A stretch of 33,413 nt of DNA from an uncultured Gammaproteobacteria bacterium (GTDB lineage: Bacteria; Patescibacteriota; Patescibacteriia; UBA10025; JAHIVO01): NCBI GenBank assembly GCA_964549245.1, contig CAZJUO010000005.1:1-33413 (forward strand), in the 5' to 3' direction. Of the stretch, positions 20,416 through 22,905 are shown in pieces. How positions within the stretch are numbered: the stretch's first letter is position 1; each line of letters starts with the position of its first letter. Under the pieces are notes generated by a model, which worked only from the letters and a program-made list of their open reading frames with translations, had not been told where the DNA came from and made no database searches. The translations under genes and the position numbers were made by a program.

Positions 20416-21162
20416 ATGAATTTAACTACCCAATTACAATCCTTTGGTTTAAATAAAAAACAAGCCAGTGTTTACCTGGCCTGCCTAGAATCGGGCCGTA
20501 CTTCTGTTCAAAACATTTCCAAAAAAACCGGTATTAAGCGTACCAGTGTTTATGACCTGGTTACTGGTCTTATTGAACAAGGATTGATTATCCAAACCAT
20601 CAAAGGAAAAAAAAGATTTTTTGTCGCTGAAGATCCCAAAATAATAAAAAAACGTTTAATGCAAAAACAAAATGAATTTGACGAACTACTTCCTGAACTT
20701 CAATCTCTCTATTCCATTCCCGGCCATAAACCAAAAATAGAATATTATGAAGGCATTGATGGCATTAAACAAGTTTTGGAAAAAACATTAACCAGCAAAG
20801 AAAAAGAACTAAAAAGTATTTTACCTTTAAAAGATTTTCTCGATCTGGTCGGTGAAGAATTTTTTCATCATTACACGCAAAAAAGGATTAAACATGGATA
20901 CACCTTGCGCACTATCCGCCCCATAACTAAGGAAATTGCCAGAGCAGTGAAAAAATACCATTGGGGAACAAATAAAAATCAAAAAAGGGAAGTGCGCCTG
21001 GCGCCAAAGTATTTTCAGTTTTCTATGGCTATGTACTTATTTGATAATAAAGTAATCTTAATGTCTTCAAAAAAAGAAATTTTTGCTTTTATAATAGAAT
21101 CAGATGAATTCGCCTATAATCAAAAGGCGTTATTTGAGGTGTTATGGCAGGCGAGTAAATAA
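20416..21162 (+). CDS. TrmB family transcriptional regulator (wHTH + C-terminal effector/PLD-like domain)
   Basis: GLNKKQASVYLACLESG...RTSVYD...L...GL, KPKIEYYEG..GI, FEVLW; promoter TTGACC-17-TACTAT (20357-20385). Confidence 0.9.
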   Translation: MNLTTQLQSFGLNKKQASVYLACLESGRTSVQNISKKTGIKRTSVYDLVTGLIEQGLIIQTIKGKKRFFVAEDPKIIKKRLMQKQNEFDELLPELQSLYSIPGHKPKIEYYEGIDGIKQVLEKTLTSKEKELKSILPLKDFLDLVGEEFFHHYTQKRIKHGYTLRTIRPITKEIARAVKKYHWGTNKNQKREVRLAPKYFQFSMAMYLFDNKVILMSSKKEIFAFIIESDEFAYNQKALFEVLWQASK

Positions 21163-21211: not shown

Positions 21212-21263
21212 CACGAGCAGTGGACCCGAGGTGACTCGTTGCGCCCCCGCCTGCCTCTACCTT

Positions 21264-21337
21264 TGGACCGAAGGGGACTTGAACCCCTGACCTCCTCCAT
21301 GCCATGGAGGCGTTCTAGCCAACTGAACTATCGGCCC
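21264..21337 (-). tRNA. tRNA-Ala(GGC), intact, CCA not encoded
   Basis: Full cloverleaf: GGGCCGA/TCGGTCC with G3:U70, anticodon arm CCTCC-ATGGCAT-GGAGG, T-loop TTCAAGT. Confidence 0.96.
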
Positions 21338-21356
21338 AAGAGCAGAGACGGGCAGT

Positions 21357-21395
21357 CATGCCATGGAAGCTCTCTACCAGATGAGCTAGAGGCCC
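21357..21395 (-). pseudogene. 5' half of another tRNA-Ala(GGC)
   Basis: GGGCCTCTAGCTCATCTGGTAGAGAGCTTCCATGGCATG, truncated just after the anticodon loop. Confidence 0.8.
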
Positions 21396-21533
21396 CCATG
21401 AGTGACGGGGTAAGATTGAACTGCGGGCCCGGAACTTATAATAATATTTTTAGATTACTAAAATAGTAATAATAGCTTATCACTATTTTTTTTAATATTC
21501 AAGTTCTTATCAGGCTAACTAAAATTTCTGATC

Positions 21534-22205
21534 TTAATACTTATTACCTTTTAGCTTATCAATGATTTCTTTGGCCGCATCCTTACCACCCAAACCGAAC
21601 GCTAAACCTCCAGCTAATGAAAACATTACTACACAACCAGTAAATAATATTTTCAATAAATCTGGTGCAACTTTTAACTGAACCAGCGCAGCTATAAACG
21701 AAAATATAAATATGGCCCATTTAGTTAATGATGCTAGCAGTTTAGAAGAGGCAATATTTGCTGATTGCGTGGCGTTTTTTACAACCCCGTATAATAAATT
21801 AGCTACTAAAATGCCAATAATTATTATCGCAACAGCGGCAATAACACTCGGCAAGTACCCGATCAAACTGTCAAAAAAGACTGATAGCTGCGTCAGGCCA
21901 AGCACATTGACTGCAGAAGCAATAAACACAATCAAAATAAACCAATAAACAATATTAGAAAATAGCAGTGTCATAGTCGTTTTCAAGCCAGCCTTATGCA
22001 GCAATTGGTGCAATCCAATTTTAGCAGCTATCTCCTCAAACCTGATTACACGTAATATTTTCTTGGCAATAATACTAAAAATCCAGGCAAAAATAAAACC
22101 GGCAAATAGCAGTATTATTGCCAGCAATAAGTTTGGTATAAGGGTAACTAAATCAGCCCAAATTTTTTCAAAGGAATTGGTTACAATTTCAGATGTTCCT
22201 GTCAT
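21534..22205 (-). CDS. Conserved TM-helix repeat protein (CmpX / MscS-associated)
   Basis: Two LIPNLLLAIILL / YLPSVIAAVAII repeats, GLAFGLGGKD; G-rich SD before ATG 22205. Confidence 0.85.
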   Translation of the reverse strand: MTGTSEIVTNSFEKIWADLVTLIPNLLLAIILLFAGFIFAWIFSIIAKKILRVIRFEEIAAKIGLHQLLHKAGLKTTMTLLFSNIVYWFILIVFIASAVNVLGLTQLSVFFDSLIGYLPSVIAAVAIIIIGILVANLLYGVVKNATQSANIASSKLLASLTKWAIFIFSFIAALVQLKVAPDLLKILFTGCVVMFSLAGGLAFGLGGKDAAKEIIDKLKGNKY

Positions 22206-22273
22206 TTTTTCCACCCCCTTTCAATTAATTTCTATAGTAATTATAGCATGTTTTAAACCCAAAAATACAAAAA

Positions 22274-22289
22274 TGTTCCACGTGGAACA
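22274..22289. promoter_or_regulatory. parS centromere-like site (ParB/Spo0J binding)
   Basis: Perfect palindrome TGTTCCACGTGGAACA. Confidence 0.88.
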
Positions 22290-22424
22290 TTTTTTATCTT
22301 TGTATTTTAAACACTTCTTCAAAATTACTGATAACCATACTTCTTAGCTGCGCCTAACAATGTTTAACGCTGAATGTTTGCAGGACGAAAGCTGGTATCT
22401 CTCTACAATGCCAATAAGCATATC

Positions 22425-22526
22425 GCCTGCCATCGACAATGGACCTAGGGAGAATCGAACTCCCGCTCCCGCAATGCGAATGCGGTGTCATACCACTTGA
22501 CTATAGGCCCACAGGCTATGGCAGGC
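22425..22526. repeat. Palindromic element whose arms enclose tRNA-Ala(CGC)
   Basis: GCCTGCCAT (22425-22433) / ATGGCAGGC (22518-22526). Confidence 0.75.
22440..22510 (-). tRNA. tRNA-Ala(CGC), intact, CCA not encoded
   Basis: GGGCCTA/TAGGTCC with G3:U70, CCGCA-TTCGCAT-TGCGG, GGGAG-TTCGATT-CTCCC. Confidence 0.95.
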
Positions 22527-22535
22527 AAGTTTATT

Positions 22536-22552
22536 AATTGAGCTAATGGCCC
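22536..22552 (-). pseudogene. 5' fragment of a decayed tRNA-Ala
   Basis: GGGCCATTAGCTCAATT; a matching anticodon remnant TGGCATTG lies at 22406-22413, on the far side of the palindrome. Confidence 0.6.
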
Positions 22553-22715
22553 TTACTTCTCCAGAATGGCGCAAATGTAGCCTTATACCCTATTTCTATC
22601 GATCACTAGTTTATATCTGAATTGCTAATGTTACATTAAATCAATGTATTTTAATATATAATTTACCAATATTAATTGTATTAGAGCAATAGTATTACCT
22701 ATTTGACTTGGCCAA

Positions 22716-22787
22716 TGCCCTCGCTAGGAATCGAACCCAGATTTATCCCTTAGGACGGGAGTGTTCTATCCATTGAACTACGAGGGC
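22716..22787 (-). tRNA. tRNA-Arg(CCT), CCA not encoded
   Basis: GCCCTCG/CGAGGGC acceptor, A20 in the D-loop, anticodon loop GTCCTAA, T-loop TTCGATT. Confidence 0.92.
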
Positions 22788-22889: not shown

Positions 22890-22905
22890 TGTTCCACGTG
22901 GAACA
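22890..22905. promoter_or_regulatory. Second parS site
   Basis: TGTTCCACGTGGAACA, identical to 22274-22289. Confidence 0.88.

Follow-up and report, generated by a model that had tools for sequence, protein, structure and literature searches.

The window, a contig of 33,413 nucleotides (C5) from the genome of an uncultured bacterium (G000), encodes on its minus strand a tRNA-Ala(CGC) gene that lies inside a second, broken tRNA-Ala gene. The inner gene is framed by the two halves of an imperfect palindrome whose relatives surround other tRNA genes in this genome and in others of its class. We think that this layout probably results from a small cassette without a gene of its own that replaces the tRNA gene that it interrupts. 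Here, a unit of ~108 bp (22529-22422), lacking any gene for its own movement, is likely to have inserted in the D loop of a resident tRNA-Ala(CGC) gene. In its palindrome the consensus ends are followed by 6-bp sub-arms, and the complete tRNA gene takes the place of the tip loop of the hairpin. This family of tRNA cassettes is widespread in ultra-small bacteria of the candidate phyla radiation (CPR) and apparently undescribed: full-text searches of the literature gave no paper on bacterial tRNA genes that lie within palindromes or within a gene of their own kind. The locus is organised as follows.

22530-22552, minus strand: 5′ fragment of the old resident tRNA-Ala gene, with acceptor strand, D stem and D loop (sequence, alignment)
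22520-22529, minus strand: left arm, CTTGCCTGCC, matching the family consensus CCTGCCCGCC at 8 of 10 positions
22511-22519, minus strand: left sub-arm and 3-nt linker, ATAGCCTGT (sequence, fold, sub-arm pairing across copies)
22440-22510, minus strand: cargo tRNA-Ala(CGC), intact, with G3:U70 and A73 and without encoded CCA (ARAGORN, Rfam)
22432-22439, minus strand: right linker and sub-arm, TTGTCGAT (sequence, fold, sub-arm pairing across copies)
22422-22431, minus strand: right arm, GGCAGGCGAT, matching the consensus GGCAGGCGGG at 8 of 10 positions
22383-22421, minus strand: 3′ remnant of the old tRNA-Ala gene (alignment with the outer genes of relatives)
22269-22294, no strand: terminator-like palindrome, readable both ways (position only)

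The cargo was recognised by ARAGORN (22439-22511) and by Rfam (RF00005, 66.2 bits, E 2e-13, 22440-22510). Nine bases of the left side (GCCTGCCAT, 22526-22518) are perfectly complementary to nine bases of the right side (ATGGCAGGC, 22433-22425), and the stretch 22532-22420 folds into an arm stem of 10-11 bp, an internal loop and a cloverleaf. None of 200 shuffled sequences equalled this fold, either as RNA (-52.2 kcal/mol, z -5.2) or as DNA (-24.0 kcal/mol, z -3.8). ARAGORN, Rfam, the fold and the alignment confirm what the first-pass annotation had described from the letters, an intact tRNA-Ala(CGC) between arms that pair perfectly over 9 bp, within a split tRNA-Ala. The 108-nt insert has no open reading frame (ORF) and no integrase gene.

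The outer gene is heavily worn. Its 5′ piece begins with GGGCCATTAGCTCAATT at 22552, and 7 of its 23 bases differ from the type found in relatives, mostly by changes from G/C to A/T; the D loop is decayed (G-to-A, C-to-T). In the 3′ remnant, the loop of the anticodon arm reads TTGGCAT (22414-22408, anticodon position 22412-22410), most of the T arm is lost, and the acceptor end is CTTTCGTCC (22391-22383), against CTTTGGTCC in intact relatives. The acceptor strands of the outer gene no longer pair. The remnant with its TTGGCAT had been noticed before, with the caution that it may be chance; it is indeed present and extends to ~22383, but its match to related genes (z 3.9-4.8, see below) is too good for the caution to hold. 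Because the 5′ piece is decayed, the T arm largely deleted and the acceptor strands unpaired, the outer gene is predicted to be unused. The layout is not an artefact of the G000 assembly (1.27 Mb, 43% G+C, 120 contigs, 90.6% completeness), since 21423-22578 is matched without a single difference by a public contig that was assembled separately and probably comes from the source sample.

The arms belong to a multicopy family. The core GGCAGGCG, which the window locus has in common with a locus 1.1 kb away, as the first-pass annotation had seen, occurs 80 times in G000 where 15.6 copies are expected. It stands 8 nt past the 3′ ends of tRNA genes on contigs C5 (twice), C7, C9, C26, C56, C85 and C99. 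We scored the surroundings of tRNA genes against the 10-nt ends CCTGCCCGCC and GGCAGGCGGG: 10 of the 44 tRNAs of G000 score at least 13/20, compared with 1.1% of random sites, and the two tRNA-Ala genes of the window score 18 and 16. On C7 (Leu-CAG), C9 (Arg-TCT), C56 (Thr-CGT) and C85 (Thr-TGT), the arm-tRNA-arm unit is nested in a second tRNA with the same anticodon. When one mismatch per arm is allowed, G000 contains 12 empty copies with loops of 10-21 nt, five tRNA-loaded copies (one of which pairs also with the left arm of an outer layer) and one copy with a non-tRNA cargo; there is no ORF within any of these arm pairs. We tried tRNA-Arg(CCT) (22716-22787) as a third worn cassette in the window, but its arm score of 11/20 is reached by 11% of random sites and we do not claim it. 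A search of tRNA flanks for pieces of the same tRNA placed 14 of 45 genes in G000 and 7 of 41 in the relative G009 above the 99th percentile of non-cognate pairs; these counts are inflated by neighbouring tRNAs and were not relied on. This search missed both loci of the window because host and cargo are too different there.

We searched 401 sampled genomes (301 genera) of the class for the loaded pattern (exact CCTGCCCGCC, 85-110 nt, GGCAGGCGGG) and 151 of the class genomes for the empty, short-loop pattern, using the reversed patterns as controls. The loaded pattern gave 99 matches in 66 genomes of 61 genera, and the empty one, which the first-pass annotation had proposed to look for, was found in 27 genomes; both controls gave none. 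A lack of empty copies would have spoken against the first-pass annotation, so that this check comes out in its favour. Some empty copies are exactly the loaded form minus the tRNA. We analysed 33 of the 99 loaded matches (30 class loci and three from G000). A tRNA was present in 29 of them, 25 in the sense and four antisense to the order of the arms, and the remaining four held other short cargo. Other cargo had also been suggested as a check, and we found Arg, Leu, Thr, Pro, Val, Ile, Asn, Gly and Trp tRNAs besides the four non-tRNA inserts. The flanks of the tRNA-loaded copies are pieces of a like tRNA, and cargo and broken host are always codirectional. Two regions of the host are hit: the D loop, after GGATA or GGTAGA, and the 3′ part of the anticodon loop. 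The geometry is constant in the 25 sense-loaded copies: a 10-nt arm, ~9 nt, the tRNA, ~8 nt, and a 10-nt arm. The non-tRNA cargo (L016, L024, L033, L034) measures ~85 nt, AT-rich or with a small hairpin, between the same arms, and a pair on C30 is 82 nt apart; the copy at L016 splits a tRNA-Val(CAC) at the anticodon loop.

The ends of the cassette could be placed to the base. When the insert was cut out in silico from arm to arm, 11 of 29 cases yielded an ARAGORN tRNA that spans the junction. Nine of these calls have the anticodon of the cargo; of the other two, one is off by a one-base ambiguity (L023) and one is an artefact of a second hairpin (L018). Since the tRNAs restored by exact removal contain no additional bases in nine cases, the element truly ends with its 10-nt arms and does not duplicate its target. 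The pairing between these ends includes a G-T pair and a fixed C-A mismatch, and the arms of the window cassette are a worn copy of this conserved imperfect palindrome, CCTGCCCGCC...GGCAGGCGGG. Of 8 sub-arm positions 5.58 are paired, compared with 4.51 for shuffled partners (none of 2000 shuffles as high), and one position is usually mismatched; this pairing indicates that the hairpin is under selection. None of 26 empty copies lay in a callable tRNA, therefore many kinds of site are occupied. We rejected the idea that empty copies target the loops of existing hairpins: complementarity of the flanks reached z ≤ -2 in 4 of 25 copies and in 20 of 200 random sites. Phages were also rejected as carriers, given that the loaded pattern occurred on six viral contigs, none with a tRNA (two are paired empty copies and four resemble GC-rich chance matches). 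On two contigs classed as viral (L154, L156), two empty palindromes of the family stand ~50 nt apart among short CACAGAG-type repeats.

The locus 1.1 kb away has the same architecture with one more layer.

21398-21430, minus strand: 17-nt 5′ fragment of an outermost tRNA-Ala (21430-21414) and a worn, arm-like stretch (21413-21398) (sequence)
21357-21397, minus strand: middle tRNA-Ala(GGC), 5′ half only, with the break at the 3′ side of the anticodon loop (sequence)
21338-21356, minus strand: left arm, ACTGCCCGTC, and linker, 8 of 10 positions as in the consensus
21264-21337, minus strand: cargo tRNA-Ala(GGC), intact (ARAGORN; Rfam, 64.3 bits)
21246-21263, minus strand: right linker and perfect right arm, GGCAGGCGGG (21255-21246), 10 of 10 positions
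21221-21245, minus strand: 3′ remnant of the outermost tRNA, consisting of GCGCAAC, an internal deletion and GAGTCACCTCGGGTCCA (resembles the outer gene of L165)

The motif GCGCAAC comes directly after the right arm (21255-21246), and in L165 it is the part of the outer tRNA-Ala just past the D-loop insertion. The outermost 5′ fragment (21430-21414) pairs, at 21228-21222, with the GAGTCACCTCGGGTCCA in which the tail ends, keeping G3:U70. The middle gene has neither its 3′ half nor a right arm of its own. From this arrangement, two successive insertions would have occurred, followed by a deletion between the two direct right arms. Invasion is thus repeated, with three layers at this locus and in G014. 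At the G014 locus (L006, contig C43, ~1030-1330), where the three layers are intact, three identical tRNA-Ala(CGC) genes are nested, each in the anticodon loop of the next; their arms (TCCCTCACCAATCCCC / GAGATTGGTGAGGGA) are unrelated to the window family and 5 nt are missing at each junction. A lone stretch resembling the right arm (ATGGCAGGCGAG, 21139-21153, plus strand) lies ~90 nt from the sister locus, in the 3′ end of a TrmB-like ORF (20416-21162), and may be chance or a remnant.

The mechanism that we favour would run as follows. The element would move as a folded single strand, by means of an enzyme supplied in trans, and enter the exposed loops of tRNA genes. Its cargo would have no promoter and would be transcribed from that of the resident gene, then be cut from the chimeric precursor by the normal tRNA end-processing enzymes, which the unpaired linkers would allow. 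As tRNA genes are present in single copy in these small genomes, only insertions with a replacing cargo would survive. Such a filter could account for the constant match between cargo and host, because only self-rescuing insertions would persist. At the window locus and at L039 cargo and host are strongly different in the D and T arms, which argues against targeting by homology and fits the survival filter. The number of promoter-like sites (5, with 5.1 expected) gave no indication of which promoter drives the cargo. The two-way palindrome at 22269-22294 probably ends the tRNA transcription unit; terminator-like sites were not above shuffles (2 found, 1.6 expected), and the evidence for this palindrome is its position. 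A conserved palindrome around GTTCCACGTGGAAC that resembles a two-way terminator stands beside tRNA genes in the window (22269-22294 and ~22890-22900) and, in the relative G009 (L005), upstream of tRNA-Ala(GGC).

As for the enzyme, we tentatively put a single-strand transposase of the RAYT type (HUH) first. G000 encodes two RAYT homologues (117 and 91.6 bits, for a curated cut-off of 80, NF047646), one of them with 175 aa on contig C98, and RAYT hits were found in 44 of the 66 arm-positive and 159 of the 335 arm-negative genomes (odds ratio 2.2, p 0.005, uncorrected for kinship). A GIY-YIG nuclease acting in trans with recombination repair is possible and comes second, with a somewhat lower probability. 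Six of the nine small intact GIY-YIG genes of G000 are at most 300 nt from a tRNA, in similar nested layouts with other palindromes; the window itself has no GIY-YIG hit. The remainder of our expectation goes to a mover other than these two.

Several observations weigh against a mobile cassette of this kind. The sole DNA run with the stretch gave no sign of movement: its contigs have neither variants nor joints at the locus, and the single joint that was found comes from another run and has a shorter side of 25 letters. Insertion points are scattered over a few bases (after A21 of the D loop or two bases further on, and at several positions of the anticodon loop) and define no sequence target. 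The cassette model leaves unexplained the first entry of a tRNA into the tip of the hairpin. Further, tRNA-Ala(CGC) appears dispensable, and the rescue argument is weaker for this tRNA because G009 does without it. In 9 of 29 copies the outer gene would be intact once the element is removed, which also fits removal at the RNA level. Regarding the enzymes, a RAYT hit is lacking in 22 of the 66 arm-positive genomes, no palindrome of the family stands beside the RAYT genes of G000, and one loosely similar hairpin was found beside one of the three RAYT genes examined in G009. The arms lack the end tags GTAG and CGTC and have the ends CCTG... and ...CGGG in all copies. There is no GIY-YIG gene inside any arm pair of G000 or G009, nor are such genes enriched near 30 loaded cassettes (one hit in 84 kb, with 0.66 expected from the genome density).

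These same data bear on the idea that the insert is a worn-out GIY-YIG homing cassette, which once held a small nuclease gene and has since lost it. We consider this unlikely. The six small GIY-YIG genes beside tRNAs, some inside palindromes of their own, speak for it, as does the cutting of single-stranded DNA at repeated motifs by GIY-YIG nucleases of the Ssn family (PMC11893778). Yet the constant geometry of the 25 sense-loaded copies leaves no space for an ORF and no ORF debris was found there, nuclease genes are absent from the arm pairs and not concentrated nearby, and the GIY-YIG cassettes of G000 use other palindromes.

It may be asked whether a different tRNA was the host. The first-pass annotation took it for tRNA-Ala(GGC) and inferred that isoacceptors could be swapped, and the GGC at the anticodon position of the remnant agrees with this. 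The 5′ fragment does not discriminate: it scores 26 both with the 5′ part of G014's Ala(CGC) gene (z 7.9) and with the Ala(GGC) gene of G011. The 3′ remnant aligns with the outer gene of G003 and with the Ala(CGC) genes of G014 and G004; its scores against the latter two are 23-27 (z 3.9-4.8), compared with 14-21 (z 0.9-3.2) against five Ala(GGC) genes, the upper z of 3.2 being that of G009. The gene order is conserved as Arg(CCT), Ala(CGC), ORF, Ala(GGC), and Ala(GGC) has its own conserved slot after the ORF. Of the 10 related loci that include the second slot, that of the window cassette, 9 have Ala(CGC) in it, and G009 has no Ala(CGC) there. In G003 the same cassette, with the same kind of cargo, interrupts the D loop of an outer gene whose anticodon is still CGC, and in G011 it is in the anticodon loop of an outer Ala(CGC). 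At least four states of the Ala(CGC) slot exist among these relatives, which are of different genera and not strains. For a comparison of filled and unfilled sites, the tRNA-Arg(CCT) of the window (22716-22787, minus strand) is uninterrupted, and in G003 and G011 (loci L010 and L011) the slot has a cassette of the family in an outer gene that resembles this tRNA-Arg(CCT) gene. The T-arm pattern of the cargo recurs at three genome and four metagenome loci: six have Ala(CGC) as cargo, all six in outer genes reading CGC, and the seventh has Ala(TGC) in a host without anticodon arm.

The remnant GGC is one substitution away from CGC, in a stretch full of other substitutions. Because the slot, the hosts in relatives and the 3′ scores point to CGC, it is best read as an extra substitution in a dead gene, and the host of the window cassette as a tRNA-Ala(CGC). 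A swap of isoacceptors is accordingly quite improbable, slightly more so than the homing cassette; the readable outer anticodons match the cargo (6 of 6 of the same type, 9 of 11 of those called by program), and the result at the window locus removes the suggestion. The earlier claim that the passenger differs from its host holds in one respect. With its other D and T arms it is of a distinct gene lineage, but its anticodon is the same.

We regard two further explanations as very unlikely. According to the first, the arms are processing stems of leader and trailer, and the partial copies arose by local duplication and deletion, without mobility. Complementarity between leader and trailer of unrelated sequence is indeed common (z < -2.5 for 11 of the 44 tRNAs of G000, and in relatives too), and recombination between arms does occur, as the middle gene of the sister locus lost its 3′ half apparently between direct right arms. 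The fragments, however, are not arranged in tandem but are complementary halves on either side of the insert. The same 10-nt ends and almost the same 8-nt linkers surround at least 10 tRNA species across 61 of the 301 genera sampled, yet only about a quarter of the tRNAs of a genome. Empty copies are found at sites other than tRNAs, and the orthologous slot is in differing states among relatives.

According to the second, the insert is removed at the RNA level, or the tRNA is split and the arms hold its halves. The inserts lie in D, anticodon and T loops, like archaeal introns, a canonical tRNA re-forms in 9 to 10 of 29 copies once the element is taken out, CCA is still encoded in some outer genes, and the only tRNA-Asn found in the assembly has a 28-nt hairpin in its T loop. 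Against this, the splicing endonuclease domain (PF01974) had no match in G000, which is 90.6% complete, while archaeal controls matched. The outer gene of the window is wrecked, with an unpaired acceptor and a deleted T arm, and an intact cognate is always inside the insert. The complete relative G009 (1,309,938 bp) has 41 uninterrupted tRNAs that cover all 20 amino acids, and its only two extra Rfam hits are weak remnants of interrupted copies beside intact Pro and Val genes.

A replacing cassette resembles several known systems in part. Integrative elements such as phages, integrative and conjugative elements and genomic islands use tRNA genes as targets and bring along a copy of the tRNA segment that they displace. 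They share with the window cassette the tRNA gene as landing site and a replacement tRNA sequence that keeps the cell viable. But the cassette, at ~108 bp, has no integrase, brings a complete tRNA and not just its 3′ part, leaves both halves of the old gene in place, and its nesting repeats. The SegB protein of phage T4 is a free-standing GIY-YIG homing endonuclease at tRNA genes. GIY-YIG tRNA cassettes, which occur in G000, have in common with ours the tRNA target, the working tRNA copy that travels and the hairpin-tagged pieces of broken tRNA around it; they differ by their palindrome family and by the nuclease, which the window cassette has neither in nor beside the insert. Archaeal non-canonical introns and split or permuted tRNAs, with bulge-helix-bulge splicing, also have inserts in D, anticodon and T loops whose exact removal restores the tRNA, and some inserts of our family are at position 37/38 (L161, L164, L166). 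Here, in contrast, the organism is a bacterium in which no EndA domain was found, the outer genes decay, and the insert is a full tRNA with the same anticodon. Integron cassettes offer an analogy only: they are likewise compact and promoter-less, with expression from a resident promoter (for our cassettes, presumed), and are bounded by an imperfect palindrome in which fixed mismatches could serve to tell the strands apart. In the present family the cargo lies between the palindrome halves and not in front of a palindrome, and no integrase or attI platform was seen, IntI not having been searched for. Miniature inverted-repeat transposable elements (MITE) differ by their target-site duplication, which is absent here, as exact removal restores the tRNA in nine cases.

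A further likeness is to repetitive extragenic palindromes (REP), the REPIN and their RAYT. Both are short, GC-rich, imperfect, multicopy palindromes without a gene for their own movement, with exact insertion, no target duplication, conserved mismatches in the stem, and RAYT homologues in the genome. Unlike classical REPs, which are reported to have a GTAG or CGTC end tag (PMC3733652), the window family has no such tag and does not flank the RAYT genes; it also carries a whole gene in its tip and lands inside tRNA genes. One could speculate that these palindromes are the first cargo-carrying relatives of REPIN, and that a system of HUH/RAYT type recognises the single-stranded cloverleaf of tRNA genes and moves promoter-less tRNA genes within and between CPR genomes, but we give this rather low credence. 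If true, it would be a natural exchange of tRNA genes in which one lineage overwrites another; here, an Ala(CGC) with other D and T arms would have replaced the resident. A bolder extension is that, at loci with an intact outer gene, the arms would keep the outer halves joined as a two-piece tRNA after excision of the inner one.

Genes for tRNA are usually seen as fixed landmarks that mobile elements adjoin or restore. In the proposed cassette the tRNA gene would itself be the cargo of an element of ~110 bp, which destroys the resident copy and assumes its job. If this is true, tRNA genes can be replaced horizontally, one by one, in a large group of uncultured bacteria, and the tRNA sets and tRNA-gene phylogenies of these lineages carry a history of mobile elements. 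Gene callers would report duplicate or overlapping tRNAs, and assemblies would break at such loci. An enzyme specific for sequence and structure, able to insert DNA exactly into the loops of tRNA genes, would await discovery and could be a tool.

The translation initiation factor 2 (IF-2) encoded in the window has its closest matches, at 59-61% identity, in metagenome-assembled genomes titled 'Patescibacteria group bacterium'. Between the two tRNA-Ala loci lies a gene for a small membrane protein with a mechanosensitive-channel helix, and nearby are genes for a TrmB-type regulator, a bactofilin, a lipid kinase and IF-2.

Other tRNA loci of G000 are also unusual. The end of contig C85 (3200-4667) is nearly all tRNA wreckage, in which older copies surround each of the genes for Thr(GGT), Tyr and Thr(TGT); these older copies have as many as three distinct hairpin inserts (in anticodon, variable and T loops), with one palindrome inside another. 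The only tRNA-Asn(GTT) found in the assembly (C86, 70-165, minus strand; Rfam 53.8 bits) lies ~70 nt from the contig end, and its T loop holds a GC-rich hairpin of 28 nt that belongs to a second family, TTGCCCCGCC...GGCGGGGTGAA; the genome may have an intact copy outside the assembled part. Neither tRNA-Phe nor tRNA-Ile(GAT) is present in this assembly. On C4 (3840-4021), two tandem tRNA-His genes have identical bodies and differing, compensated acceptor stems, as have the inner and outer Leu(CAG) on C7, which points to conversion of the gene body or to swapped ends. Finally, tRNA-Ile(UAU) is encoded in both G000 and G009, and G009 has only two CAU tRNAs, which suggests that AUA is read without a lysidine-modified tRNA.

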